Assembly (NCBI GenBank): GCA_012729095.1
Contig: JAAYDU010000008.1
Span: 12,252 to 76,251, forward strand
Origin: Methanobacteriota archaeon
GTDB taxonomy: Archaea; Thermoplasmatota; Thermoplasmata; Methanomassiliicoccales; UBA472
DNA length: 64,000 nucleotides
Reading direction: 5' to 3'
Position numbers and translations under genes: made by a program. Positions 16,582-47,730 of the stretch are shown in pieces. Each line of letters starts with the position of its first letter. Position 1 is the first letter of the stretch. The notes under the pieces were generated by a model. The model was not told where the DNA came from. It saw nothing but the letters and a program-made list of their open reading frames with translations, and did not search any database.

Positions 16582-16620
16582 GCTGCACACATTAAATATC
16601 TGTCACCTTTATTTTTGCTC

Positions 16621-17610
16621 ATGGATGAGACCGAGGTCATCTCCGCCAGCGATTTGGAGCGGTACGGGTATTGCCCGCTCAGCTGGTGGTTGGGACGGCG
16701 GTCCCGATCCAGCACCCCCGATCAGGAAAGGGGGGAACTGGTGCATCGCAGCAAGGCCGATGAGTACCGCCGCATACGCGGCATCGAGCAGAAGGCCTGG
16801 GACTGGGAGCGCATGGTATTCCTCTTTTCCTTGGTGGCCACCGTGCTGGCGCTTACCGGAATATCCCTGATGCGCGCCTCCAGCGGAGCGAACCTCGATT
16901 GGATACTGCCCCTGCTCAGCATCATCTGGTTCGTGGCGGTCATCGCCATGCTCTATCTCTCGGCGCAGATGGGGCAGGCCATCATCCGGGTGAGACGGCT
17001 GCAGATACTGGCCATCATTGGCCTGGTGCTTATGGTGGTGGCCATGAACATCGGCGGCCTGTTCCATGCCGATCCCCGGATCTCCATGATACTTGAGGTA
17101 CTGGCCCTGGTTTGGATGATGGCCGCCTCATTGGCATTGTACCTTTCGCTCTCGGCATCCCAGGAAGCGGGGAGGAAGAAGGATGAAGAGGGCCTGGAGG
17201 GGGAAATCCGCTACGTGGGGACTGATAGCTCGCCTTTGTTCTTTTCGGAGAGGTACGGCCTGAGCGGCAGGCCGGACTTCGTGCTGGAGATAGACGGGCA
17301 GCTCATCCCGGGGGACCTGAAGACCGGGCGAACGCCGAGGGGGCCCCTGTTCTCGCACATCATGCAGGTGGCGGCCTATTGCCTGCTCATCGCCGAGACA
17401 TCGGGAAAGCGCCCTCCGTACGGGCTTCTTCGCTACGGTGACGAGGAGCACGAGATCGAGTTCGACCCGGAGCTGGAGAAGCTGCTCCTGGGAAAGCTGG
17501 AAGAGATGCGTGGCCTCATGCGCAGTGGAGAGGTGCATCGCAACCACAACCGCCCGGGCAAGTGCGCCAAGTGCTCCCGCCGGGACTCGTGCCCGGAGAG
17601 GCTGGTGTGA
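16621..17610 (+). CDS. Cas4/RecB-family Fe-S nuclease interrupted by a four-transmembrane-helix insert
   Basis: N-terminal ISASDLERYGYCPLSWWL and GELVH. Four hydrophobic segments at about 16813-17157 (MVFLFSLVATVLALTGISLM, LDWILPLLSIIWFVAVIAMLYL, LQILAIIGLVLMVVAMNIGGLF, ISMILEVLALVWMMAASLALYL). Then GRPDFVLEIDGQLIPGDLKTG (D .. DxK), MQVAAY (QxxxY) and C-terminal CAKCSRRDSC (CxxCx5C). TTAAATAT at 16592-16599 sits about 26 nt upstream of ATG 16621. Confidence 0.7.
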   Translation: MDETEVISASDLERYGYCPLSWWLGRRSRSSTPDQERGELVHRSKADEYRRIRGIEQKAWDWERMVFLFSLVATVLALTGISLMRASSGANLDWILPLLSIIWFVAVIAMLYLSAQMGQAIIRVRRLQILAIIGLVLMVVAMNIGGLFHADPRISMILEVLALVWMMAASLALYLSLSASQEAGRKKDEEGLEGEIRYVGTDSSPLFFSERYGLSGRPDFVLEIDGQLIPGDLKTGRTPRGPLFSHIMQVAAYCLLIAETSGKRPPYGLLRYGDEEHEIEFDPELEKLLLGKLEEMRGLMRSGEVHRNHNRPGKCAKCSRRDSCPERLV

Positions 17611-19407: not shown

Positions 19408-20597
19408 CAGACCACTATGCTCCTGTCCTCGAGCGATCCGCTTACCTTGGCACCGGCCCCCACGCGGGACTTCGCTCCCACGATCGTGCCGGCGGACAGC
19501 ACGACCTTGGGACCGATCTGGGTGAACTCGCCGACCATGCTTCCAGCCTTCTCCACCTTGAAGAAGTCGTCCTCCACCCTGACCTGAGCCGGGCCAGATG
19601 GGGCGGAGAAGCCGGTCATTATGCGGCATCCGTCATCGATGACGGCCCTCGATATGTGAGCGTGCGAGCCTATGGAGACGTTGTTCATGATCATGGAATT
19701 GTTGATGGCAGTGAAGGGAGCTATGTGCACCCCGTTACCAATGCTGGTCGTCGGGAATATGGTCACGTACGGACCTATCTCGCACCCCTCGCCTATGGAC
19801 ACCGGTCCCTCTATGTAGCAACCGGCGCGTATCCTGGAGCCAGCGCCCACGTACACGGGGCCGCGCATGGTCACACCGGACTCGATGGCCCCGGATGTCT
19901 GCTGGCCGGAGAGGCTGAAGGCGTACTCGTTAAGCCGGACCAGGTCCCATGGGTACACGGCGTCCATCCAGCGGCCGGTGGACCGTACCGCCTCGATCCT
20001 TAGGCGGGGCATGCAACTGTGCAGAACGTGGGTTATGCCGGACTTTCCGGCCATCACGCCCTTCTCCAGGTGGTCGAATATCCCGGGCGAGAAACGGTAT
20101 ATGCCTGTGTTGATGATGTTGCCCACCTTCTTGTCCGGCTTCTCTATTATGTCCATCACCTTCCCGGACTCTATCTGTACGACCCCGTACTTGGAGGGCA
20201 TCTCGGAATCGGTGACCAGCATGGCCATGCTGCCCTTGTGCTTGAGAAGGTCGGATATCACCTGGGCGTCAATGATGTTGTCCCCGGCCACCATGATGAA
20301 GTCCTCTTTGATCTGGTCCCTGACCGCCAGCGCAGCGTGCGCTGTACCCAGCTGCTTCTCCTGTATCGCATATGATATGCGCACCCCGAAGCGCGAGCCG
20401 TTCCCGAAGAAGGACATGATGCGTTCCTTCATGTAGCCCACGACCAGTATGATGTCGGTTATCCCATTGGCCGCCACGGCGCGCACGACGTACTCAAGGA
20501 TGGGACGGTTGCCGATGGGGATCATTACCTTGGGCCTGGAAACGGTGAACGGGCGCAGCCTGGTTCCCTCCCCGGCGGCCAGAATGACAGCTTTCAT
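19407..20597 (-). CDS. Bifunctional sugar-1-phosphate nucleotidyltransferase/acetyltransferase (archaeal GlmU-like)
   Basis: MKAVILAAGEGTRLRPFT nucleotidyltransferase loop, with C-terminal left-handed beta-helix hexapeptide repeats. Coupled to glmS. Start trimmed to ATG 20597. Confidence 0.8.
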   Translation of the reverse strand: MKAVILAAGEGTRLRPFTVSRPKVMIPIGNRPILEYVVRAVAANGITDIILVVGYMKERIMSFFGNGSRFGVRISYAIQEKQLGTAHAALAVRDQIKEDFIMVAGDNIIDAQVISDLLKHKGSMAMLVTDSEMPSKYGVVQIESGKVMDIIEKPDKKVGNIINTGIYRFSPGIFDHLEKGVMAGKSGITHVLHSCMPRLRIEAVRSTGRWMDAVYPWDLVRLNEYAFSLSGQQTSGAIESGVTMRGPVYVGAGSRIRAGCYIEGPVSIGEGCEIGPYVTIFPTTSIGNGVHIAPFTAINNSMIMNNVSIGSHAHISRAVIDDGCRIMTGFSAPSGPAQVRVEDDFFKVEKAGSMVGEFTQIGPKVVLSAGTIVGAKSRVGAGAKVSGSLEDRSIVV

Positions 20598-20733
20598 CAA
20601 AGGGTCCTCTGGACATAGCCATCCCTGTGGCCGTTTATTAATCTTTTTCGCGGCCCGCTCAATACCGGTAACTGATAATGAGGAGGAAAGTTGTTTAAAA
20701 ATCGACAAGGGTCAAGCGCCCAAGGTTCACCAA

Positions 20734-22167
20734 ATGCCCGTTCCATATATTTCCGCATTGCCTGTCGAGATCGTTCAGTTCTTGGACAACCCCGGGGGCC
20801 ATTCCCTGCTCGTCCGGGGCAATGCAGGCACCGGAAAGACCACTTTCGCCCTGCAGGTGGCAGAGGAGCTCAAGGACCGCCAGAAGGCGCATTACCTGTC
20901 CACGAGGGTCTCCGATCCCTCATTGCTCAGGCAGTTCCCTTGGCTGAACGAGCGGCTTCTGGCCAGGGATGAGACCGGGACCCGGCGCCGCTCGGGCTTT
21001 GGGCGCCTCAAGGGAGTGGGGTCCGGCGACCTGATGGTTCCCAGGCGGGAGATGGCCGTCACCATCGGACGGACCATGCCCGATCTGGAGAACCTCTATG
21101 ACCTGGTGGAGAAGGGCGATGGGCGAATGCTGGTCATAATCGACAGCATCGACGCCCTGGCCGACCGCTACGAGCTGCAGTGTCGGGAGCTGATCAGCGC
21201 CCTTCAGCGAGACCTGGTGGAGGGGCATGGGGCGAACCTGCTCTTCGTCCTGGAGAGCAATGACCAAATGCTCGATTACATCGGGGACGGCGTTGTGAAG
21301 TGCAGCAGGGTGGAGCACGGTAGGAGGCTGGTGAGGGAGATGGACCTGATGAAGCTGAGAGGGGTGGAGGTGCAGCAGCCCCTGTACCTTTTCAGCCTCA
21401 AAGGAGGCAAGTTCCGATGCTTTGGGGCCAGATGGAACACTGGCCACGACAAGGGCGCGCGGTTCATCAGGCCGGACGACCCTTCAGGTCGCTTTTCCTA
21501 TGGGATAACGGACCTGGACGCCATGACCGGGGGGCTCTGTCCCGGAACGGTCACGCTGATCGAGCTAGGACCCGGCCTCCCCCCGACCGTGAGCGGTCTG
21601 CTGGAGAGGTCACTGGTCTCCAGCTTCGCCAAGGCCGGGCGGGGGGTGATCTGGGTGCCCCTGCGCAAGGAGAGCGGTGCGGGTGCCCGGGGGCTTTTGC
21701 AGAACGCCCTGACCGACACGGAGATGGAGAAGGCGGTGAGAGTGGTGGAGCCAGCCTCCCAGATGGACCTGGGGAGCGGGAGATACGTCATGGCCGTGGA
21801 AGGGGCGAGGGCCTTGGACGACCTGAAGTGGAAGAACATCGTGTACGCCTTGGACGGAAGTTCGCAGCCGTTCCTGTCGATCATGGGATTCGATTCCCTG
21901 GAATCGATGTACGGCGGGGATGTAATGGAAGGACTGGTGGACCACCTGTCCGCGGTGAAGAGGAACGGGGGGGCCTTCGTCGGCCTGACCGCTCCAACCT
22001 CCCGTTCCACGGCCCGCCTGGCAGACCTGGCCTCGGTGCACCTGAAGTTGGAGAGGATAGGTGGAACGGTGGTGCTCTACGGCAGCAAGCCTTTCACCGA
22101 GTGCTTCGCCCTTACCGTGCAGGAAAGACCCCGGGGAGGGTGCGTGTCCCTGACACCGCTGGTATGA
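20734..22167 (+). CDS. Two-domain KaiC/RecA-like ATPase (first domain with canonical P-loop, second degenerate)
   Basis: LLVRGNAGTGKTTFALQ (Walker A) and MLVIIDSIDAL (Walker B). The second domain reads DAMTGGLCPGTVTLIELGPGLPPTV, with no Lys-Ser/Thr. Start set at ATG 20734, because the upstream part of the track ORF is antisense to the glmU-like gene. Confidence 0.7.
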   Translation: MPVPYISALPVEIVQFLDNPGGHSLLVRGNAGTGKTTFALQVAEELKDRQKAHYLSTRVSDPSLLRQFPWLNERLLARDETGTRRRSGFGRLKGVGSGDLMVPRREMAVTIGRTMPDLENLYDLVEKGDGRMLVIIDSIDALADRYELQCRELISALQRDLVEGHGANLLFVLESNDQMLDYIGDGVVKCSRVEHGRRLVREMDLMKLRGVEVQQPLYLFSLKGGKFRCFGARWNTGHDKGARFIRPDDPSGRFSYGITDLDAMTGGLCPGTVTLIELGPGLPPTVSGLLERSLVSSFAKAGRGVIWVPLRKESGAGARGLLQNALTDTEMEKAVRVVEPASQMDLGSGRYVMAVEGARALDDLKWKNIVYALDGSSQPFLSIMGFDSLESMYGGDVMEGLVDHLSAVKRNGGAFVGLTAPTSRSTARLADLASVHLKLERIGGTVVLYGSKPFTECFALTVQERPRGGCVSLTPLV

Positions 22168-22177
22168 GGTGCTGAGA

Positions 22178-22858
22178 ATGTTCAAGACCAACTTTCCACA
22201 GATGTGCTCCGTCCTCGTGCTAGGCACCCCGGGAGTGGGGCTGCTGGAGTTCCAGTTGAGCATGGTAAAGGAATACCTGGACCGTGGGGAGCCGGTCGTC
22301 TTCGTCACGATGGACATGATACCCAGGGACCTGATGGCGGCCATGGAGCGATTCGGGATCTCCCTGGACCTCCTGGGAAAGGGGCTTTACATCATCGATT
22401 ACCATTCCTGCCTGCTGGGCAACTCGGACGAGAGGGAGATGCCGGAACGCGCCAAGGTGCGCCGCATACATGACCTTGAGGGCATCATGTTCAATGTGGC
22501 CAGCATCTTCGCGGAGGAGAAGAGGCCGCTCAGGGTTTTCATGCACACCCTCTCCACGCTATTCCTGTACAACCAGGCAAGCGTGGTGCTGAAGTTCTTC
22601 CAGATCAGCACCTCCCGCATACGGAGCGAGTACGGAATGACCGTGGTGTCCGTGTTCGACGGGGTGCATGACGAGAAGGCCCTCAATCACCTGGTCGCGC
22701 TTGCGGACGGGGTGCTCGAGCTGCGCTTCGACAACGATCTGAACAGGGTGCTCAGGGTGCGCCACATGAGGGGCATGTCGGTCCCGGGACGCTGGATACC
22801 TTTCGAGATCGCCCCGGGAGGGGGAGAACCCCTGACCCCAGTGCTGGAATGGAAATGA
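22178..22858 (+). CDS. Single-domain KaiC/RecA-like protein with a degenerate P-loop
   Basis: VLVLGTPGVGLLEF at the Walker A position (GLL replaces GK[ST]), and VVFVTMD. GGTG lies 6 nt upstream of ATG 22178. The track start GTG 22169 is also possible. Confidence 0.6.
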   Translation: MFKTNFPQMCSVLVLGTPGVGLLEFQLSMVKEYLDRGEPVVFVTMDMIPRDLMAAMERFGISLDLLGKGLYIIDYHSCLLGNSDEREMPERAKVRRIHDLEGIMFNVASIFAEEKRPLRVFMHTLSTLFLYNQASVVLKFFQISTSRIRSEYGMTVVSVFDGVHDEKALNHLVALADGVLELRFDNDLNRVLRVRHMRGMSVPGRWIPFEIAPGGGEPLTPVLEWK

Positions 22859-32578: not shown

Positions 32579-34573
32579 CTAATCCTTCTTCCTCATGAGC
32601 AACACCATGGCGATCGCTAGCACTACAACCACGATGCCCACCACGGCATAGACCATGATGTTGTCGCCCCCATCATCCTCTCCGGTGTTCCCCGCATCCA
32701 GCGGCAGCTCTCCCTCGAAGTAGTCGGGATAGAACAGGCAGGCCACCGTCCACAGCCCTTCGGTGGCGTCGGGGCAATAGGAGTTCCAGGACTTGTTCAG
32801 CTTGTAGACGGTGATGTCATCGTTCCCCACGTCGCTGGAGAACTCCTCCGCCGTGCCCTCGTAATATCCGTCCAGAAGGATGAACTCGGGATCGAGCTGC
32901 AGCAGTGCGGTGAAGTCCACGGAGTACCTGTTCGCCTCTATGGAATCGTCCCGGGCCAAGTTGACACCGCCAGCGAAGGTGATGAAGTCCACGGTGACCA
33001 GGCCTGTGTTGCCAATGTACATCACGTCACCGCTGTAGCTCACATAGACCGCGCTGACCTTGTCCTCGGAGTCCGTGATGCCCATGTCGACCAGGGTATC
33101 GGCTATGTACTGCTTGACGAACACCATGTGTCCAGAGACGCTGTGGTTCGTTCCGGTCAGGAACTCGATGTCCTCCACCACCTGGACGATCCCGTCGTAG
33201 GAGTTGGGGTAGAAGGTGACCACGTGGAAGCCGTACCCCTCAAGTTCCGCCCAGACGGTGGATAGGAAAGAATACCCATAGCCGATGACGACATCGCTGC
33301 TCTTGTTCCATTTTCCGTTGTCCACCAGATCGAGCATGGTCTGCACCACCATGTCCTTGTTGGAGGAACTGACGGTTACGAACTTGTCGGCAGGAATGCC
33401 CTCCATCTCGGGTATGTTACTCTTGTTGAACTCGGAACCTGCGTCGAACAGCACCGCCTTGTCCAGCATCCCTATGTCCACCAATGTGTTTGTGGCGAAC
33501 GCGCCGAAGGACGCCACATGTACCGCCGGAGCGGTAAGGTTGGTGGTGACCCCTCGCGAGTCGGTGACGGATATTGGCCCGATGACGGGCTGGCCTTCGA
33601 TTGGGACCTCCCCCTCGAAGTAGTCGGGATAGAACAGGCAGGCCACCGTCCACAGCCCTTCGGTGGCGTCGGGGCAATAGGAGTTCCAGGACCTGTTCAG
33701 CTTGTAGACGGTGATGTCATCGTCCATGATCATCGCCGAGAAGTCCTCGGCCGTTCCGCTGTAGTACCCGTCAACCAGCACATATTCCGGGCTGATCTGC
33801 AGGATGGCGGTGAAGTCGGCGGAGTAGGTGGGGGACGTCTTGTTGGCATCCTCGGCCACGTTGATGCCTCCAGCATATCTTATGAAGTCCACGGTCACCG
33901 AGCCGTTGTTGCCCAGCTTGAGGACCTCGCTGCTGTAGCTGGCGTAGATCGCGGTCACGAACTCGGACTGTTCGTCGACCCCGTTCATGCTCAGTGTCTC
34001 CGCTATGTACCCTTTGACGAACTCCATCCAATCCGAGACATCGTGAGAGGCGCCCATGACCGTCTCGATGTCCTCCACCACCTGGACTATGCCGTCATAG
34101 GATTTGGGATAGAATGTGATGACCTTGAAGTCCAGGCCTTCCAGTTCCGTCCAGGTCGGGGACAGGTAGGAGTATCCGTACCCGAAGATCACGTCGGTGC
34201 TCTTGTTCCATATGCCGTCATCCACCAGGTCCAGCATCCTCTGGACAACGACATCCTTGTTGGCGCTGCTGACGGTGATGAACTCATCGGCCGACCTGCC
34301 CTGCATCTCAGGGATGGCGCTCTTGTTGAACTCCGAAGTGGCGTCGAACAGCACCGCCTTGTCCAGCATCCCTATGTCCACCAATGTGTTTGTGGCGAAC
34401 GCGCCGAAGGACGCCACATGTACCGCCGGAGCTGTAAGGTTGGTGGTGACCCCTCGCGAGTCGGTGACGGATATCGTCGCGTCGTTCGTCGAATCTCCTT
34501 GCGTGAAGGCAGGCACCGCGATGGTCAGCAAGGCAATGACCATCAACGTTACGATCGCTCGTTGGAATCTCAT
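32579..34573 (-). CDS. Tandem-duplicated class-III (FecB/BtuF-like) substrate-binding protein with an N-terminal signal and C-terminal membrane anchor
   Basis: 664 aa. Two ~300-aa halves each carry ISVTDSRGVTTNLTAPAVHVASFGAFATNTLVDIGMLDKAVLFDA .. GYGYS .. TFYP.SYDGIVQVVEDIE .. DITVYKLN.SWNSYCPDATEGLWTVACLFYPDYFEGE. The C-terminal anchor is IMVYAVVGIVVVVLAIAMVLLMRKKD. Confidence 0.8.
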   Translation of the reverse strand: MRFQRAIVTLMVIALLTIAVPAFTQGDSTNDATISVTDSRGVTTNLTAPAVHVASFGAFATNTLVDIGMLDKAVLFDATSEFNKSAIPEMQGRSADEFITVSSANKDVVVQRMLDLVDDGIWNKSTDVIFGYGYSYLSPTWTELEGLDFKVITFYPKSYDGIVQVVEDIETVMGASHDVSDWMEFVKGYIAETLSMNGVDEQSEFVTAIYASYSSEVLKLGNNGSVTVDFIRYAGGINVAEDANKTSPTYSADFTAILQISPEYVLVDGYYSGTAEDFSAMIMDDDITVYKLNRSWNSYCPDATEGLWTVACLFYPDYFEGEVPIEGQPVIGPISVTDSRGVTTNLTAPAVHVASFGAFATNTLVDIGMLDKAVLFDAGSEFNKSNIPEMEGIPADKFVTVSSSNKDMVVQTMLDLVDNGKWNKSSDVVIGYGYSFLSTVWAELEGYGFHVVTFYPNSYDGIVQVVEDIEFLTGTNHSVSGHMVFVKQYIADTLVDMGITDSEDKVSAVYVSYSGDVMYIGNTGLVTVDFITFAGGVNLARDDSIEANRYSVDFTALLQLDPEFILLDGYYEGTAEEFSSDVGNDDITVYKLNKSWNSYCPDATEGLWTVACLFYPDYFEGELPLDAGNTGEDDGGDNIMVYAVVGIVVVVLAIAMVLLMRKKD
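32712..32823. repeat. Intragenic near-identical block A, copy 1 (partner 33612..33723, offset exactly 900 bp)
   Basis: Base-by-base comparison gives 111/112 identical (t/c at 32783/33683). The flanks diverge immediately. Confidence 0.9.
33441..33574. repeat. Intragenic near-identical block B, copy 1 (partner 34341..34474, offset exactly 900 bp)
   Basis: Base-by-base comparison gives 133/134 identical (g/t at 33533/34433). Neighbouring sequence is visibly diverged. Confidence 0.9.
33612..33723. repeat. Intragenic near-identical block A, copy 2
   Basis: Partner of 32712..32823. Confidence 0.9.
34341..34474. repeat. Intragenic near-identical block B, copy 2
   Basis: Partner of 33441..33574. 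Confidence 0.9.
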
Positions 34574-35158: not shown

Positions 35159-36238
35159 ATGTGCGGTACCACTGCCTTCTTCTACAACGATGACCTGCTC
35201 AGGTATCAGTTCGGGCCCGAACATCCCTATCAGCCCATAAGGTTCCAGCTGATCAGGGACACCCTTAGGGAGATGAGCGTGTTCGATGGCCGCCTGGAGT
35301 ATGTCGAACCACCTTCAGCCACCGAGGGGGACCTCTACGAGGTGCATGACCGCTCGCTCATCGAGAGCGTGAAGGAGATGAGCGCGGCCGGTTCCGGCTA
35401 TCTTGACATGGGCGACACGCCGGTCATGCACGGCCTTTACGAGGGAGCACTGGCCGCGGTCGGGGCCACCCTCCATGGGGCAGAGAGCATCGCCCGGGGA
35501 GAGTTCGATCATATCATGACCCCTGGCGGAGGGCTCCACCATGCCAGACGGGACAGGGCGGCGGGTTTCAGCGTGTTCAACGACCTGGCCATCGCGGCCA
35601 GGCGGTTGCAGCGCAGGTATGGTTACGAGCGCATCGCCATCGTGGACATCGACGGCCATCATGGGGACGGCACCCAATCTATATTCAACGGCGAGAAGAT
35701 ACTGACCGTCTCATTCCATCGTTTCGGGGCGGGGTTCTACCCTGGTACGGGGGCGGTCACAGATATCGGAGAGGGGGATGGAGAGGGGTATGCCGTGAAC
35801 GTCCCCCTGCCCCGCTGCACCCCTGACGAGGTGTACGTTCCCACGTACGAAAAAGTGCTCTCCGCCGCCCTGGACGCCTATCATCCGGAGATCATCATAC
35901 ATCAGTTCGGCACGGACGCCCACTACAGCGACCAGATGGTGGGCATGGGGTTGACCACCAGGACCTACGAGAAGGTGGCGGAGATAACCCATCGCCTGGC
36001 GCACGAGCATTGCGACGGTCGTTACCTGGTAACCGGAGGAGGGGGATACTCGGTGGACGCGACACGGCGCATCTGGAGCATAGCGGTTTGCACGGTCTCC
36101 GGCTCCTTCCCCCTGAACCCGGAGGGGATGCATCTCATGCGGGACTCCGGGCTGAACCGCAAGTGGAAGGTGCAGCAGGAGGAGTTCCATAAGAGACTGG
36201 ACTATCTGTACGATGAGGTCATTCCGAAGATCCGCTGA
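35159..36238 (+). CDS. Histone deacetylase-family enzyme (AcuC/acetylpolyamine amidohydrolase-like)
   Basis: GGLHHARRDRAAGFSVFND, then IVDIDGHHGDGTQ and GGGGY, the class I/II HDAC catalytic and zinc-site motifs. Confidence 0.85.
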   Translation: MCGTTAFFYNDDLLRYQFGPEHPYQPIRFQLIRDTLREMSVFDGRLEYVEPPSATEGDLYEVHDRSLIESVKEMSAAGSGYLDMGDTPVMHGLYEGALAAVGATLHGAESIARGEFDHIMTPGGGLHHARRDRAAGFSVFNDLAIAARRLQRRYGYERIAIVDIDGHHGDGTQSIFNGEKILTVSFHRFGAGFYPGTGAVTDIGEGDGEGYAVNVPLPRCTPDEVYVPTYEKVLSAALDAYHPEIIIHQFGTDAHYSDQMVGMGLTTRTYEKVAEITHRLAHEHCDGRYLVTGGGGYSVDATRRIWSIAVCTVSGSFPLNPEGMHLMRDSGLNRKWKVQQEEFHKRLDYLYDEVIPKIR

Positions 36239-36860
36239 GCTCCTTCATCCTGATTATCCAATCCAGGCATGCCCTTCCCCGTTCCGTGAGCCTGAGCATG
36301 GGCGCCCCAACCCCTTCATCCAGCCTGATAAGGTCCATCCGCTTCATTCGCCTGAGCATCGATGGAAGGGGGTCTCCCTTGCCCTTCGCTCGAACGTCCT
36401 TCAAGGGCACGGGCCATCGCTGGCATACCAGGAACTCTGCCAAATCCCCGGGGAGGGCCTCGCGCACGCCCATGGCCGCCAGCAGGGGGAACCTCCTGAT
36501 ACCTGACTCGAAACAGCAAAGCTCGGCCCCGGTGGATAGGGCGGCCAACGTGGCGGCGTCGCTCAGCAGCTTCCTTCCCCCGGTAATGTCCACCCTCACC
36601 CTCCATCCCCTGTCCTTGTGTTCCTGCACCTTGCGCTCGATGAGCATGGCGGAACCGGTAAGGTCCAACGGGTCAAGCGACAGCACCTCATGGCTTATGC
36701 CCAGCCTCCGCAGCAGGGTCATGACTGGGCCCCTCTCGTCAAGGGAGATGTCGGTCACCAGGACCATGTGATGATGGGGCAGCGAGCGCATCCCCGGCAC
36801 TATCTCCCCGACCTCGTCGCCGAGCGTGCTGACCAGCAGGTCCTTCCGTTCCGCCATCAA
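36219..36860 (-). CDS. Csa3-like CARF domain plus winged-HTH regulator (second of a tandem pair)
   Basis: N-terminal Rossmann-like LLVSTLG.., CARF loop VDITGGRKLL, and C-terminal wHTH-like LRRMKRMDLIRLDEG..LRLTERGRACL. Its ATG overlaps the upstream stop. Confidence 0.65.
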   Translation of the reverse strand: MMAERKDLLVSTLGDEVGEIVPGMRSLPHHHMVLVTDISLDERGPVMTLLRRLGISHEVLSLDPLDLTGSAMLIERKVQEHKDRGWRVRVDITGGRKLLSDAATLAALSTGAELCCFESGIRRFPLLAAMGVREALPGDLAEFLVCQRWPVPLKDVRAKGKGDPLPSMLRRMKRMDLIRLDEGVGAPMLRLTERGRACLDWIIRMKELSGSSE

Positions 36861-37501
36861 TCCAGCCCCAGCATCAGCTCCAAGGCGTCGTCGACGGTCA
36901 CCATCTTCTTCCTGCGGTCCAGGGGGTCCTCGACGAGCCGTACGATGTTATTGACCTCGAGCATCTGAATATGATGGTTGATGGTGGCCTTGTGCTTGCC
37001 CATACCCTGGGCCAGCTCCACCTGGGTCATGGGATGCTCGCGGTTCTTCCATATGAACGTCAGTATCTCCTTCTGCGCAGGGGTGAGGAGCTGGGAGTAA
37101 TCCACCCTGAGCAGGGGCAGCGGGATCTCCCGGTAGGTCTCATCATGAACGTAGACTGAATTGAGACCTTCCATGGCGCATACCAGCAGCGCGGCGGCGC
37201 TCATCATCTTGGTGCCCCCGGCGATGTTGAACACGGCGATCTCATCGCCGCCCTTTCTCAGTTTTTGCACCTGAGAGCGCATGGCCTTGGCGGCCTGGAG
37301 CAGGTCGAAGGCGTCCGGGATTGCCACCCGGTCGATGTGTACGCCCATGACAGAGCACACGCCCCTGATCTCGGCCAAGGCCTGAAGGGCGCGGGGATGG
37401 TCATTGCAGAACACCACCACCTGGTCCACTGAGGGAGTGGACTCTAGCGTCGGTAAAAGCGATTTCGCCCGAAAGCCCAGGGTGCCAAGTATTGCGACCA
37501 T
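36857..37501 (-). CDS. Csa3-like CARF domain plus winged-HTH (MarR-like) regulator (first of a tandem pair)
   Basis: MVAILGTLGFRAKSLLP, CARF loop FNIAGGTKMM, and C-terminal TPAQKEILTFIWKNREHPMTQVELAQGMGKHKATINHHIQMLEVNNIVRLVE. Confidence 0.7.
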   Translation of the reverse strand: MVAILGTLGFRAKSLLPTLESTPSVDQVVVFCNDHPRALQALAEIRGVCSVMGVHIDRVAIPDAFDLLQAAKAMRSQVQKLRKGGDEIAVFNIAGGTKMMSAAALLVCAMEGLNSVYVHDETYREIPLPLLRVDYSQLLTPAQKEILTFIWKNREHPMTQVELAQGMGKHKATINHHIQMLEVNNIVRLVEDPLDRRKKMVTVDDALELMLGLD

Positions 37502-37551
37502 GCCTTATCGTCTCATCATGGTTCGAATCATTTATCTTGATTGCTTAATAC

Positions 37552-37572
37552 GGTATTATATTTCATAATACC
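37552..37572. promoter_or_regulatory. Perfect inverted repeat GGTATTAT-N5-ATAATACC in the divergent intergenic region; candidate operator
   Basis: Read directly: GGTATTAT (37552-37559), ATTTC, ATAATACC (37565-37572). It lies in the 142-bp AT-rich spacer between the Csa3-like operon start (37501) and the surface-protease start (37644). Confidence 0.35.
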
Positions 37573-37643
37573 ATATTCTTTGAAAACGAGGCGAATCTGA
37601 TTAAATATGAAGGGAACTCTATCATCAATCACCGGGTTCGCCG

Positions 37644-40600
37644 ATGATCGCCCACAGATGCTCTCGCATGTTGTCAGTGATATTTCTGACGGCCTTCATT
37701 ATAATCCCTGCCTTCCAAGCTCCGGCCACCGCAATGGGGATGGAACTGTCGGTCACCTATGAATACGACTTTCCGGAACCTTTCATCTACCCGAGCGGTC
37801 CAGATCGCTTGTTTGGCGTAACCGGGCTGGACCTTGACAGCAGGGGCGGTGTTCCGGCCCTTCCGATGCGCAGCGTGTTCCTGGCCGTGCCCCCGGGACA
37901 TCGGTTGATCGACGTAGAGGTGCGGTGCTTCCTGCAAAGGACCATCGGTTTCACGGACAGTTATCCCACCAACCCAACAGAGATCGCTTTGAACGGCGAA
38001 CGCTCCTTCAGCCATGAATACGAACCGATATCGTGGGAGGTATCCGGCCGTCACGTCCTGGAGGGCGTGGAGGTAGTGGGTATCAACCTTAGACCGTTGT
38101 GCTGGGACGAGAGAACGGGAGCCCTGTCATTCGTCGGACGGTACTCTGTGACCTTGGTATACGAGGAGAGCAGTATCGATTTTCTTGGGGACGTTGACCG
38201 GGTCAGGGACCTGGTGGACAACCCGCAGGCGGTGCCTGACCTGTCCAGTTTCACAACCTCTAGCGTGCTGCCGGTCGGAGATTACGACCACCTGATAATC
38301 ACCAGCCGTGACCTGTCCGCACCGTTCCAGGAACTGGCCCATTGGAAGGGTGAGAGAGAAGACCTCGGTTCCGCCCAGGATAACATACGCAGTACGGTGG
38401 TGGCTCTGGAGGACATACTTGAAGATGATCGATTCTGGGGTATCCCCAGTGCCCACGCGGGTACGGGAAACGACACCCAGACGATCATACGAAATTTCAT
38501 AATCACCGCCCATCAGGAGTGGGGGGTGCAGTACGTCCTCATCGGAGGGGATGACGACATAGTTCCCGCGCGCATGGTCAAGGCACCCTATGATGACAAC
38601 CAAATCGATGAGCTTACTGCGGACATCTACTTCTCGGGACTGGACGGGGACTGGGACAGCGATGGAGATGGCGTTTACGGCGAGCCGGGTAGCGTGTACG
38701 TCGCTGATGAGGCCGATCTGCTGGCGGAGGTATTCGTTGGAAGGGCCACCGTATCTACCGTGAAGCAGGCCTGGAACTTCGTGAACAAGACCATCGCTTA
38801 CGAGAGGGGGCATTCCAATCAGTACGGTGATGATATTCTGCTCATCGGTGAGCTTTTGGACAGTGCCACACAGACCTACGGAGATGATTACATGGAAGAG
38901 GTGTGGGACCTGGTGCTGGCGGACGAGGGGCTTGACCGCTCCACGCTGTACGCTAGGGATGGCACCTTCTCCGGAAGCGCCGTGCTGGCGGCCATGGGCT
39001 CGGGCGTGCACGTGATCAATCACATGGGACATGGAAACTTCGAGTCCATGACCGAACTGGACAACGAGGACGTCAGAGGATTGCAGAACGAGCTTCCCTT
39101 CATAGTGTACACCCAGGCCTGCAACGTAGCGGGCTTCGATGAAAAGGAGGACCGGCCAGGTGATTGCATAGCGGAGGAGTTCATCCAAGGAGAGGGAGGC
39201 GCTGTGGCATTCATCGGCAATTCGCGATACGGTTGGTACGTGAAGGGAAGCACGGACGGGTCCTCCCAGAAGTTCGACATCTCATTCTTTGGCCAGGTCT
39301 ACGATCATGATGTCACGGACCTGGGACGGGCCCTCTCCTATTCCAAGGAGGAACATGCCAACCTGGCCTTTTCCGCGGGAACCGTCCGCTGGGTATATCT
39401 GGAGCAAAACCTCCTGGGAGATCCGGAGACCCGGGTGCACCTTCCAGGGAGCGATCTGCACGACCTGGCCGTGCAGGGCATGGACGTCGGGCGTGCCATA
39501 CTGGACGAGCCATGCCCTATCGAAGTGTGGGTGCGGAACCTGGGTCATTCGGACCAGGTGGGAAAGCTTGTTCTCGAGGCCGATGGAGAGGAGGTCGACA
39601 ACAGGACCTTCTCTCTTGGCATGGGAGAGGACATGACAATCCTCTTGGAATGGACACCTCTGGAGCACAGGGTGTCCAATATAACCGCGCGCGTGATCTG
39701 TGCGGCGGACCAGAGACCCGGGAACGATGGGAGGGAGGTGCGCAGCATGGTAGACCGGCGCATCGTTAGCGACGAGAGCTGGACCGGGAACGTTACCTTG
39801 CCGGGGGGATTGCTTGTAGACCCCCTGGTCACCGTGAACGTGAGCGATTGCGAGATAGCTTTACAGCCTTCCGACCTTCCGTACCACATCAGCGTGCTGG
39901 GTGCTCTATCGCTCAACGGCAGCACTTTTCAAGGCTCCCCGTTCTCCATAGGCTCGGACGGAGGGCGCCTTGAGCTCAGGAACGGTCGCCTCCTCGGAAT
40001 GTCGTCCACTTGCCCGAGCACCTTTGCCGGGGGCTCGCTGTACATGCGGGACATGGAGATCGTCGGCGGTGCCGGGTGGCTCTTGAACGGCACTTCCGTG
40101 GACGCTCTCAACGTTACCCTGACGGGGCAGTCCGGGGAATGGCTGATGTCGGACTCAGCGGTCTACTTGGACCGACTATTCGGTCAGGGTGGGGACGGGT
40201 TACGGCTCCTGGGCGCTACCGGGGCGGTCACCTCGTCCTCGTGGACGGGGGGTTCATCGGGGATCTCCATAGACAGCTGCGTTGGAATGGTACTGCGCGA
40301 TCTCGTTCTGAACGGGAACGGAATGGACATGGACATATGCGGGGACCTGCCCTCCCATTTCATGCATGAGGTGGAAAACGTAAGCCTGACCTACGGCCCC
40401 CTCATGATGATGCAAGGACTGAACAACGCAACGGTTGAGGAGGTCAGCGGCTCGCTGTACCTTATCGGATGCCACGATATGATCGTAAGGAATTCGCGGT
40501 TCGGCAACTCCGGAAGCGGACTGACCCTGGTCAACAGTTCGAACGTGGAGATGCTGGGCAACGCCTTTGAGAACTGCACTATCGGCATAAGAGCCGTGGA

Positions 40601-42746
40601 CTCTCAAGGCCTGGCATGGGGCAATGATCTCCTGTTCAATGACGTGCAGGTTTTCCATTCACGTTCTGAACTCTCCTTCGGAAAGGAGTACCCCCTGGGA
40701 GGCAATCACTGGTCGGACATGGCAGGGGAAGATGCCATGGGCGGGGAGCACCAGGACGAACCGGGTGCGGATGGCATCTTTGACGACGCGTATGACGCCG
40801 GGGGGACGTATGACCGGTACCCAAGGACCCATAGGTGCAGTTATCTGTACGATCGCCTGGAGGCGTCCTTCTCGCAGGACGCGGAGCAGGCCGATAGGAC
40901 GGGGGCAGTGACCTTCGTCTCTACCAGCACCAGCGGGATCGGGATCGCCAACTGGACCTGGGACATGGGGGACGGGACCATCGCCCACGGACCGTCGGTG
41001 GCGCACACCTATCCATCCCTGGGAACGTTCACGGTGAACCTTACCGTCACCGATCATTTTGGGCAGGAGGACGGCACGGAGGGGGCGGTGCAGGTGATAA
41101 ACCTGCGCCCGGTCTGCGATTTCAGCAATTCGCCAACGCGCCCCAAGCCGGGGGACGCCGTGCAGTTCAATGACCTCTCCACGGACCTGGATGGCGAAAT
41201 AGTGTCCTGGCTGTGGGATTTCGGAGATGGTTCTTTTTCCGATTCCCGATCGCCCCAACATACTTTCGTTAACGAGGGGGACTACCTGGTGTCCCTGACG
41301 GTCAACGATACCGACGGGGCGATAGGCACGATGGCCCGCGCGTTGGCGGTGGGCAACGACCCGCCGGTAGCCGCTTTCTCGTGGAGCCCGACGTCCATCA
41401 CCACCGTGGTGGACGTAAATTTCATTTCCCAGAGCTCGGACATTGATGGAACCTTGACCTCCTGGACCTGGGACCTCGGAGATGGTTCTTCAGGGAGTGG
41501 GGCCGATATCAGGCACAGGTATTCCTCACTGGGCACTTACACCGTCACCCTGGTGGTCACGGATGACAACGGGGCAAGCGACTCCGTATCCAAGACCATC
41601 ACGGTCGTGAACTCCCGTCCGGTGGCGGTCTTTATGGCCCCTGCCCAAGTAGAAAGCCTATCGGCCGCGTGCTTCGAGGACCGCTCCTACGATCTGGACG
41701 GCATCATAACGGGATGGAGCTGGACCTTCGGGGACGGGGGTGCGTCCAACGACCGGTCGCCGACCCACGTCTTCCTAGTGCCTGGGACCTACAGCGTGAC
41801 CTTGACCGTGACCGACGACCGGGGATGGGCGGGCAAGAGGAGCTCGGACATCATTGTCACCAACCGTCTGCCCGAGGTGAACTTGACCACACCCCAGGGC
41901 GATCACTGGTCCCTGGACGTTATTGACTTCAGCGCCTCCGCCAGCGACCCTGACGGGATGGTGGTGAACTACACGTGGGAAATGGGCGACGGTGCTGTGA
42001 AGGAGGGCGGGAACGTCACGCACGCCTACCGGGCACCTGGCACCTACAACGTCACCGTTACCTGCCGGGACGATTCCAATGGGGAGACGTCGGTCAGTTC
42101 CTTGGTGACGATACTGAACCTGGCCCCGCGGGCGGAGGTACTGATGCAGCAGGGCGGGCATCCCCTGGAGCTGGTGTTCATCGCTCAGGCGCAGGATGAC
42201 GACGGTCGTTTGACCCGGTACGATTGGAGCTTTGGCGATGGCGCATACGGCGAGGGAGAGATGGTGAGACACGAGTACGCGGAGGAAGGGAGTTACGAGG
42301 TGAAGCTCACTGTGATCGATGATGTGGGAGGGATGGTGGAGGCGGGGTGCATGGCCGAGGTGCTCCCGGGGAACCTGTACCTTTCAGGAATGCGTCTGAG
42401 CTACGTTCGAGGGACGGGTTGGGAACTCAGCGGGGAGATCTGGAACGAGGGAGAGCTGCCGGTGAACGTGACACTGTCCGTCGATGCTGGAAATAGGATG
42501 TTCCTCTGGGAGATCGAGGTGAGCGGGGAAGGGTTCGAACCGTTCCATCTGCCGCTGACCGGTTTCGAGGGCGGGGAGGTGAACGCGACCCTTCTGACCC
42601 CGGAAAGATGGGAGACCGACCTGAGAGACAACCTCTGGACGGGTGACGGGGATCCCTGGACACCGTTCGTACCTTGGATCGCGGGAGGGGCGGCCATCGT
42701 GATGGCCTTGGCCGCAATGGTGATGTACGCAAGAAGGAGAGGATGA
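37644..42746 (+). CDS. Giant surface protein: signal peptide, peptidase C25 (gingipain-like) domain, CARDB-like domain, right-handed beta-helix (PbH1/NosD-like) region, six PKD domains, CARDB-like domain, C-terminal TM anchor
   Basis: 1700 aa. Signal MLSVIFLTAFIIIPAFQAPATA. C25-like YVLIGGDDDIVPAR, YFSGLDGDWDSDGDG, His box NHMGHGNF and Cys box VYTQACNVAGF. PbH1-like LYLIGCHDMIVRNSRFGNSGSGLTLVNSSNVEMLGNAFENC. Six W.W.[FML]GDG PKD cores (WTWDMGDGT, WLWDFGDGS, WTWDLGDGS, WSWTFGDGG, YTWEMGDGA, YDWSFGDGA). Tail PFVPWIAGGAAIVMALAAMVMYARRRG. Confidence 0.85.
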   Translation: MIAHRCSRMLSVIFLTAFIIIPAFQAPATAMGMELSVTYEYDFPEPFIYPSGPDRLFGVTGLDLDSRGGVPALPMRSVFLAVPPGHRLIDVEVRCFLQRTIGFTDSYPTNPTEIALNGERSFSHEYEPISWEVSGRHVLEGVEVVGINLRPLCWDERTGALSFVGRYSVTLVYEESSIDFLGDVDRVRDLVDNPQAVPDLSSFTTSSVLPVGDYDHLIITSRDLSAPFQELAHWKGEREDLGSAQDNIRSTVVALEDILEDDRFWGIPSAHAGTGNDTQTIIRNFIITAHQEWGVQYVLIGGDDDIVPARMVKAPYDDNQIDELTADIYFSGLDGDWDSDGDGVYGEPGSVYVADEADLLAEVFVGRATVSTVKQAWNFVNKTIAYERGHSNQYGDDILLIGELLDSATQTYGDDYMEEVWDLVLADEGLDRSTLYARDGTFSGSAVLAAMGSGVHVINHMGHGNFESMTELDNEDVRGLQNELPFIVYTQACNVAGFDEKEDRPGDCIAEEFIQGEGGAVAFIGNSRYGWYVKGSTDGSSQKFDISFFGQVYDHDVTDLGRALSYSKEEHANLAFSAGTVRWVYLEQNLLGDPETRVHLPGSDLHDLAVQGMDVGRAILDEPCPIEVWVRNLGHSDQVGKLVLEADGEEVDNRTFSLGMGEDMTILLEWTPLEHRVSNITARVICAADQRPGNDGREVRSMVDRRIVSDESWTGNVTLPGGLLVDPLVTVNVSDCEIALQPSDLPYHISVLGALSLNGSTFQGSPFSIGSDGGRLELRNGRLLGMSSTCPSTFAGGSLYMRDMEIVGGAGWLLNGTSVDALNVTLTGQSGEWLMSDSAVYLDRLFGQGGDGLRLLGATGAVTSSSWTGGSSGISIDSCVGMVLRDLVLNGNGMDMDICGDLPSHFMHEVENVSLTYGPLMMMQGLNNATVEEVSGSLYLIGCHDMIVRNSRFGNSGSGLTLVNSSNVEMLGNAFENCTIGIRAVDSQGLAWGNDLLFNDVQVFHSRSELSFGKEYPLGGNHWSDMAGEDAMGGEHQDEPGADGIFDDAYDAGGTYDRYPRTHRCSYLYDRLEASFSQDAEQADRTGAVTFVSTSTSGIGIANWTWDMGDGTIAHGPSVAHTYPSLGTFTVNLTVTDHFGQEDGTEGAVQVINLRPVCDFSNSPTRPKPGDAVQFNDLSTDLDGEIVSWLWDFGDGSFSDSRSPQHTFVNEGDYLVSLTVNDTDGAIGTMARALAVGNDPPVAAFSWSPTSITTVVDVNFISQSSDIDGTLTSWTWDLGDGSSGSGADIRHRYSSLGTYTVTLVVTDDNGASDSVSKTITVVNSRPVAVFMAPAQVESLSAACFEDRSYDLDGIITGWSWTFGDGGASNDRSPTHVFLVPGTYSVTLTVTDDRGWAGKRSSDIIVTNRLPEVNLTTPQGDHWSLDVIDFSASASDPDGMVVNYTWEMGDGAVKEGGNVTHAYRAPGTYNVTVTCRDDSNGETSVSSLVTILNLAPRAEVLMQQGGHPLELVFIAQAQDDDGRLTRYDWSFGDGAYGEGEMVRHEYAEEGSYEVKLTVIDDVGGMVEAGCMAEVLPGNLYLSGMRLSYVRGTGWELSGEIWNEGELPVNVTLSVDAGNRMFLWEIEVSGEGFEPFHLPLTGFEGGEVNATLLTPERWETDLRDNLWTGDGDPWTPFVPWIAGGAAIVMALAAMVMYARRRG

Positions 42747-42753
42747 TAAAAGC

Positions 42754-42826
42754 GCCCCGGTCGGGATTTGAACCCGAGTCGAAGCCTCGACAGGGCTTCA
42801 TGATAGGCCGCTACACTACCGGGGCA
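42754..42826 (-). tRNA. tRNA-Asp (anticodon GUC)
   Basis: Reverse complement GCCCCGGTAGTGTAGCGGCCTATCATGAAGCCCTGTCGAGGCTTCGACTCGGGTTCAAATCCCGACCGGGGCG. It has a 7-bp acceptor stem, anticodon loop CUGUCGA, and T-arm TCGGG-TTCAAAT-CCCGA. It is followed by CTTTT. CCA is not encoded. Confidence 0.9.
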
Positions 42827-47292: not shown

Positions 47293-47730
47293 GGGTTGTT
47301 CCACCACTCTAAGAACGTTCGATGCAGGCAAGTTCACAGGGGCCGATGGCCCTTCAATGTCCTAACCCGGATGGAAAATAGGCGTGGAGTCTATTAATTT
47401 TTCTAAATGCTGAATGAGTCCTATCGTAATATTATCTAGTACTTTCGTACGTTCTTCACTGGAGCGCGTGATAGGCCAGTGCACCCTTCGCCTCACCGAC
47501 GCAGGCCGTAACTCATTGAAAGGGGTGCCCTAACGGGGATATTGGTGCCTTTTCATTTCAGATTCCTAAAGGAATTTATTACGGAATGAGAAGGTGTAGC
47601 AGGGTCGTTATCATATAATGCTTAATAAAATCGAAGATGAAGGCGATGATTTCGCAAGCTACGTTCGTAACTCGTAATTTCGAAGCTTTTATGCCGTTAA
47701 ATTACGTCTTTCGTAAACAATTTTCTGAAA

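Follow-up and report, generated by a model that had tools for sequence, protein, structure and literature searches.

The stretch of DNA analyzed here is a 64,000-nucleotide portion (the window) of contig JAAYDU010000008.1, from a Methanobacteriota archaeon of the order Methanomassiliicoccales (assembly GCA_012729095.1). On its minus strand it carries two tandem genes, A and B, which are predicted to encode paralogous regulators that each combine a CARF domain with a winged helix-turn-helix (wHTH) domain, the architecture of Csa3. Our analyses favor, with fair but far from complete confidence, the explanation that A–B is a vertically inherited CARF3 regulator operon that is autoregulated, ligand-controlled, and independent of CRISPR-cas. 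In Methanomassiliicoccales and in related Thermoplasmata alike, such an operon would act in the core chromosome. A dimer of A would bind an operator of inverted and direct GTATYA repeats just upstream of its own transcription factor B recognition element (BRE) and TATA box, thereby autoregulating the operon, and this binding would be set by an adenine-nucleotide messenger resembling cyclic tetra-adenylate (cA4). B, co-translated with A, would modulate A, most likely through a mixed A:B assembly or through competition for, or buffering of, the ligand. The class to which these proteins belong is already known: orphan Csa3 proteins have been documented outside CRISPR loci and in CRISPR-less organisms (PMC8699464, section 4.6; PMC11434293), and orphan Csa3 homologues are attributed to Makarova 2020 as cited by Charbonneau 2021 (PMC8699464). 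What is new here is the conserved pairing, the asymmetry in rate between A and B, and the candidate operator; in the literature searched, we found no report of an obligate, translationally coupled pairing of Csa3 paralogues across a lineage, of asymmetric rates, or of a conserved operator. The initial annotation of this DNA had proposed CARF signaling outside immunity, and although the non-CRISPR setting of that proposal is borne out by the locus, the idea itself had precedents in the orphan Csa3 literature (PMC8699464, PMC11434293).

Gene A (36857–37501, minus strand) encodes a protein of 214 aa with a CARF domain at residues ~1–125 and, at residues ~139–205, a winged helix that is MarR-like. 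It scores above the Pfam gathering thresholds of Csa3_N (30.8 versus 27), MarR_2 (29.1 versus 27), and Cas_APE2256 (27.2 versus 24.8), and the PADLOC model PDLC01853 (“CARF3--CARF”) spans its full length with E = 5.6e-88. PADLOC carries profiles from the CARF census, and this full-length match indicates that the subfamily of A had already been profiled. The AlphaFold2 model of A (predicted local distance difference test score, pLDDT, 90) has the Csa3 structures 6wxq, 2wte, and 6w11 as its top PDB matches in Foldseek; lower-ranked matches are to the ring nucleases Sis0811 and Sso1393 and to other CARF proteins, with MarR-family chains matching the C-terminal part, and the profile of A matches MepR/MarR structures at 9e-7. 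More than 190 homologues were found, all in Methanomassiliicoccales or Thermoplasmata assemblies. Across 40 homologues of 46 to 85% identity, the segments GTLG, FNIAGGT[KR]..S, and HKATxNHH are invariant, the last including the recognition-helix residues K171, A172, T173, N175, H176, and H177. By profile and predicted structure, A is thus a slow-evolving CARF–wHTH protein of the Csa3 clade (CARF3), and it is probably a sequence-specific DNA-binding regulator. One 771-aa match with 12 repeats (P0160), considered as a multi-CARF protein, was rejected as repetitive sequence.

Gene B (36219–36857 from its ATG, minus strand; 212 aa) has the same CARF and winged-helix layout in a divergent, fast-evolving form. 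Alone it falls under every Pfam and NCBIfam threshold: TIGR01884, the Csa3 family, gives no match, and its only NCBIfam match is to the ring nuclease family Crn1 (NF040581), at 22.5 bits against a cutoff of 125. The PADLOC model PDLC01856 (“CARF3--CARF”), on the other hand, matches residues 17–193 with E = 2.7e-18. Its AlphaFold2 model (pLDDT 81) shows a CARF fold followed by a C-terminal winged helix with secondary structure H-H-H-E-E, and Foldseek matches this model to the CARF domains of Cam1, Sis0811, Can2, Csm6, and Sis0455/Sso2081 (E 1e-6 to 1e-4). The winged helix itself gives a weak Foldseek match to the MarR-like structure 3lfk and profile matches to MarR chains at ~2e-3. The best PDB sequence matches of B include Sso2081 and Sis0455, around DITGGRK, and its profile detects Sso2081 at 7e-6. 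The family is small, with 98 cluster representatives at E ≤1e-3 among 1.84 billion proteins searched; within it the winged helix is poorly conserved and the CARF motifs are kept. These matches and the model identify B as a predicted CARF–wHTH protein of the Csa3 clade that is too divergent for Pfam alone to recognize. The description of two tandem Csa3-like CARF–wHTH open reading frames (ORFs) in the initial annotation therefore stands on the Pfam matches of A, the PADLOC CARF3 models, and the AlphaFold2/Foldseek matches. The comparison with Csa3 structures that it had suggested places Csa3 first for A and the CARF domains of Cam1, ring nucleases, and Can2 for B, and the glycine loops it had pointed out are present, FNIAGGTKMM at residues 91–100 of A and VDITGGRKLL at residues 89–98 of B.

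The two proteins are related to each other as well as to Csa3. A hidden Markov model (HMM) of A matches B proteins at 1e-4 to 1e-18, and an HMM of B matches A proteins at 1e-10 to 1e-21, from which A and B are judged to be ancient paralogues. One genome per GTDB species was scanned, and the best 80 of 100 confirmed A matches were kept as loci, all of them from uncultured members of the Methanomassiliicoccales/Thermoplasmata. In about 76 of these 80 species-level loci a B homologue directly follows A on the same strand, and the pair is present wherever the downstream sequence sufficed, with the exceptions of L077, in which B is reduced to an N-terminal remnant (~4443–4496), and L043 (10001–11287), in which A and B form a single ORF of 428 aa. 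The latter was considered as Rosetta-stone evidence and rejected: the frame shifts ~45 nt before the usual stop of A, destroying its conserved C-terminal helix, and the fusion most likely reflects an indel in a long-read metagenome-assembled genome. The distance from the stop of A to the start of B is –4 nt in 35 loci, +4 nt in 17, and –1 nt in 3. In the window, the tight coupling noted earlier is confirmed, but not the ATGA overlap of 4 nt at 36857–36860 by which it had been described: the junction reads ATTGATG on the minus strand, with the TGA stop of A (36859–36857) overlapping the ATG of B (36857–36855) by 1 nt, while an alternative TTG start of B (36860–36858) would overlap the stop of A by 4 nt. 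Identity to the A of the window is 81% in the close clade and 46% in distant loci, and the corresponding values for B are 64 and 28%; thus, A is far more constrained than B. In three distant loci, L080 (1928–2407), L086 (11420–11896), and L089 (3284–3850), B is closely followed by a third, weak B-like match (2e-4 to 4e-7), which may represent an extra CARF-like paralogue.

The neighborhoods of the pair fall into two conserved types. In Methanomassiliicoccales (context 1), the order is PPDK, CBS/ParB_N, tRNA-Asp, A, B, HDAC, and DUF6951, with the CBS/ParB_N, HDAC, and DUF6951 genes oriented opposite to the others. In other Thermoplasmata (context 2), A and B lie between genes for an aminotransferase, a Zn-ADH, an MBL/RMMBL protein, and a HAD hydrolase on one side and a GPN-loop ATPase and MTTB on the other, all six opposite in orientation to the pair. 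The survey for CRISPR-cas components covered the 64-kb window and flanks of 10 kb or less at each locus. No direct-repeat array was found in the window, and no Cas10, Cas7, Cas5, Cas3, or Cas1 is among the PADLOC matches listed (the best 25 of 55 matched families, from 111 ORFs of at least 150 aa), the others listed besides CARF being Cas4-family, generic ATPase, and radical-SAM look-alikes. Neither cas genes nor CRISPR-like arrays were found in the 80 species loci (1.25 Mb in total) or in a further set, L001–L011. The statement in the initial annotation that the pair lies outside any CRISPR-cas locus accordingly extends from the window to ~80 orthologous loci, and the link to CRISPR-cas loci, usually type I-A, that is typical of Csa3 is absent from all of them. 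From its distribution and contexts, A–B looks like a vertically inherited unit.

Upstream of A, at 37544–37572 on the minus strand and 43–71 nt before its ATG, lies an operator-like composite motif, GGTATTAT-GAAAT-ATAATACC, overlapping TAATAC-C-GTATTA. The full sequence, GGTATTATGAAATATAATACCGTATTAAG, contains three GTATYA half-sites, arranged as an 8-5-8 inverted repeat and the overlapping TAATAC-C-GTATTA palindrome, and the inverted repeats I1 and I6 cover it. Of the 81 orthologous upstream regions compared, which across distant lineages are otherwise unalignable, 57 have the consensus RGTATYA-N7-WWWAY-N-GTATYA at 68–76 nt from the ATG of A. In a position weight matrix (PWM) scan, the motif is the sole strong match in the 64 kb, scoring 40 where Markov-simulated sequences reach no more than 15.5; the one further match, at 47604–47632, is weak (12.3). 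The window holds one exact copy of the pattern, where 0.02 would be expected, and in a scan of 91 loci, 32 had a single copy each, in every case at the A promoter region. A metagenome-wide scan with a clade-specific form of the motif matched high-GC contigs only at A promoters; 40 matches in low-GC metagenome sequences, considered as operator copies, were rejected as unrelated AT-rich sequences. Some context-2 loci carry the composite motif twice, the additional copy being 125–150 nt upstream of A on the opposite strand (L036, 9853–9878; L047, 9851–9876; L053, 1590–1615) and possibly serving the divergent HAD-hydrolase gene.

Between the motif and A, a putative archaeal TATA box, GATAAAT, is located at 37530–37536 on the minus strand, ~29–35 nt upstream of the ATG, and an A/T-rich TAAA element occurs at the matching offset in distant orthologous upstream regions. 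It is plausible that this element is the TATA box, which would imply a leaderless or short-leader mRNA. A TATA box at ~30–35 nt would place the motif just upstream of the BRE/TATA. This position, the invariance of the recognition helix in A, and the fact that the only strong match in 64 kb sits at the A promoter all point to autoregulation: the most economical reading is that A probably autoregulates the operon through the candidate operator.

The CARF pocket of A was compared with that of Csa3a, which contacts cA4 through Gly9-Phe10 of the β1-α1 loop and Gly96/Arg98 of the β4-α4 floor loop (PMC8699464). At these positions A has G9, F10, G96, and K98, the last being R98 in most of the family; the 40 A homologues show no variation at G9 or G96, an aromatic residue at position 10, and K or R at position 98. 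The inspection of pocket residues that had been suggested for these proteins thus finds the cA4-contacting residues of Csa3a retained in A. The surrounding loops, G6 T7 L8 G9, F91 N92 I93 A94 G95 G96 T97, and S101, are also invariant in these sequences, down to 46% identity. Both proteins carry the conserved CARF pocket motifs, T7-L-G9-F10 and N92-I-A-G-G96-T-K98 in A and S10-T11-L-G13 and D90-I-T-G-G94-R-K96 in B, with Ala at the [ST] pocket position of A. Most B homologues have a Csa3-type T-h-G-F-D-E motif (T-F-G-F-D-E) together with N-I-S-G-G-T-K, and the Lys of GGxK varies in B, not being conserved in several lineages. Because A keeps both the phosphate-binding floor loop of Csa3a (G96, K/R98) and its G9-F10 pair, which stacks on adenine, its DNA binding is probably controlled by an adenine-nucleotide messenger that resembles cA4.

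Several observations weigh against an autoregulated, ligand-controlled operon of Csa3-type proteins. The best NCBIfam match of A, TIGR01884 (Csa3, cas_HTH), reaches 33.6 bits and lies below the cutoff of 60.2, and in motif 1 A has R-x in place of the N/D-E found in Csa3. Neither the exact-pattern scan of the 91 loci nor the metagenome scan yielded motif sites away from the A promoter, and with no further operator copies found, no regulon is defined beyond the operon itself. The conserved motif is A/T-rich in part, and that part may belong to the basal promoter instead of an operator. Moreover, 14 soil-derived loci that lack the GTATYA composite at –70 carry a different conserved element at about –49. 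This element, CGACAGAAGAAACTTCTTATCGTC, contains a GAAG-N3-CTTC palindrome and is found in L038, L040, L045, L049, L054, L057, L060, L062, L069, L072, L074, L076, L083, and L085.

Other explanations of the pair were also weighed. One possibility, which we consider unlikely, is that A–B is a trans-acting arm of type III CRISPR immunity that senses cA4 or cyclic hexa-adenylate made by a Cas10 complex encoded elsewhere and, on infection, alters host transcription, much as Sulfolobus Csa3 acts on loci away from the type III genes. In favor of this explanation are the Csa3-like fold and the retention of residues that contact cA4, and Csa3a is responsive to cA4 made by type III complexes whose genes lie in separate clusters (PMC8699464). 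The pair, however, is fixed in two housekeeping contexts in ~80 species-level genomes with apparently vertical inheritance, and in no locus is there a cas gene or array within 10 kb. Type III systems, in contrast to this fixed pair, are patchily distributed. In addition, many genomes that encode Csa3 lack Cas10 (PMC8699464). A different proposal dispenses with CRISPR altogether: A and B would pair obligately as a heterodimer, and its asymmetric CARF pocket would sense a non-CRISPR housekeeping messenger, with cyclic di-AMP or an oligoadenylate from an enzyme other than Cas10 as candidates, and drive a core transcription program. We regard this as rather unlikely, but if true it would represent a non-immune, lineage-wide CARF signaling pathway across an entire order of methanogens and related archaea.

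Another suggestion is that B is a Crn1-type ring nuclease, which would reset the switch by degrading the cyclic oligoadenylate that A senses. B does share the CARF–wHTH layout of Crn1, Sso2081 and Sis0455 are among its best PDB sequence matches, and Crn1 is its sole NCBIfam match; yet that match is more than 100 bits short of the family cutoff, and the GGxK Lys is not kept throughout the B lineages. In a profile alignment, moreover, B-family proteins have D or E at the position of Ser11 in the β1-α1 loop, the residue we take to be catalytic in Sso2081. The Csa3-type T-h-G-F-D-E motif of most B homologues points the same way, as Csa3a has no ring-nuclease activity (PMC8699464). The substitution at the Ser11 position and the inactivity of Csa3a thus make a ring-nuclease role for B very unlikely. 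We find it similarly improbable that the CARF domains are ligand-free dimerization modules and that A and B are constitutive MarR-like repressors. The variation of the B pocket motif among lineages would be consistent with such modules, but the pocket loops of A, invariant over 40 sequences, are as conserved as its DNA-recognition helix.

Comparison with characterized systems helps to place the favored explanation, a vertically inherited, autoregulated operon. Csa3/Csa3a of the Sulfolobales (Sso1445; 2WTE, 6W11, and 6WXQ) is the best structural match of A and resembles it in its two-domain architecture, its length of ~210 aa, and the ligand loops G9-F10 and G96-x-R/K98. The candidate motif of A is also placed like the binding element of Csa3a, CAPPa, which is found 12 bp upstream of the BRE/TATA (PMC8699464). 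The gene for Csa3, however, belongs to type I-A CRISPR-cas loci, and the targets of the regulator are cas, CRISPR, and DNA-repair genes, whereas A–B lies among housekeeping genes, and A differs further in falling under the TIGR01884 cutoff, in lacking the motif 1 N/D-E, and in its obligate pairing with a divergent paralogue. An experimentally studied orphan is HFX_2341 (crr) of Haloferax mediterranei, a Csa3-like global repressor that, like A–B, is a vertically inherited CARF–wHTH regulator encoded away from CRISPR loci; HFX_2341 is also present in CRISPR-less species (PMC11434293). In contrast to A and B, it is a protein of 308 aa from Halobacteria for which neither an adjacent paralogue nor a conserved operator is reported (PMC11434293). 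Matches of the window proteins to its Pfam family, HFX_2341_N (PF19810), are sub-threshold (24.6 for A and 17.6 for B against a gathering score of 30); the B orthologues in L010 and L011 have precomputed PF19810 matches at E 1e-5 or better. The Crn1 ring nucleases (Sso2081, Sso1393, Sis0811, and Sis0455) share with A and B a CARF domain joined to a wHTH-like domain and give structural and weak sequence matches to both, but the Ser11 position of Sso2081 is not conserved in B, the family score is far under the cutoff, and A–B lacks a CRISPR context. Can1 (TTHB144) has two non-identical CARF domains in one chain and forms its cA4 pocket from these two different domains. A hypothetical A:B heterodimer would form its pocket in the same manner, although Can1 acts as a nuclease effector made of one chain and belongs to a type III locus, while A and B are separate, regulator-like proteins.

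These results extend a known class of orphan regulators and leave the current picture unchanged. Which ligand orphan CARF proteins bind, and whether cyclic-oligoadenylate-type signaling reaches beyond antiviral defense, are questions that have been raised for Csa3 (PMC8699464, section 4.6) and HFX_2341 (PMC11434293). The A–B locus offers a compact test case, with co-translated paralogues in ~80 species, a 29-bp candidate operator, and residues in the pocket of A that are accessible to mutation. Discovery of a ligand would define a housekeeping messenger for Methanomassiliicoccales, among which are methanogens of the gut and of digesters; should the proteins turn out to be ligand-independent, they would exemplify a CARF domain reduced to a dimerization scaffold.

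The genes that flank the pair in the window are positioned as first described. An HDAC-family gene (35159–36238, plus strand) is convergent with B, the two 3′ ends overlapping by 20 nt (36219–36238), and a gene for a 1700-aa C25-peptidase/NosD/PKD surface protein of the gingipain family (37644–42746, plus strand) is divergent from A. The further suggestion in the initial annotation that the pair is wired to this surface protease did not hold up. The protease gene is restricted to the ~9–10 closest species. In the other context-1 loci, tRNA-Asp(GTC) lies ~120 nt upstream of A, whereas in the window, where tRNA-Asp is at 42752–42825 on the minus strand, and in L016 and L019 the distance is 5.3 kb and the protease gene lies between; thus, the protease gene is a lineage-specific insertion beside a tRNA gene, inserted between tRNA-Asp and A, and not a conserved regulatory partner. 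Its promoter now shares a 142-bp intergenic region with the candidate operator of A. A functional link to HDAC as a general rule was likewise rejected, as HDAC is a neighbor in only one of the two conserved contexts.

Elsewhere in the window, the expectation that the 64 kb hold no CRISPR or cas component is correct for an array and a cas operon but overlooks a solo Cas4-family PD-(D/E)XK nuclease (16615–17610, plus strand; 331 aa; PADLOC Cas4 7e-23; Pfam Cas_Cas4 and PDDEXK_1). This protein has an N-terminal Cys and a C-terminal CxxCx5C, and its gene lies 19 kb from the A–B pair, following the gene for adenine deaminase and preceding those for GlmS and a GlmU-like protein; no other cas genes were found nearby. 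PADLOC also matched a homing-endonuclease model (3.8e-32) and mad3/mad8 among the window ORFs, and some of its generic ATPase matches are probably accounted for by adjacent GvpD/KaiC-like P-loop ATPase genes at 20449–22167 and 22169–22858, both on the plus strand. The only Rfam families in the window are two tRNAs, and its remaining content is housekeeping: PolB, GatE, AspRS, GlnA, HisRS, POR, a PEP synthase/PPDK-type enzyme, ABC transporters, and RNase HII. At 32579–34573 on the minus strand, upstream of FecCD/ABC transporter genes, a putative substrate-binding lipoprotein of 664 aa consists of two near-identical halves, with long stretches repeated almost verbatim, and represents an internal tandem duplication.

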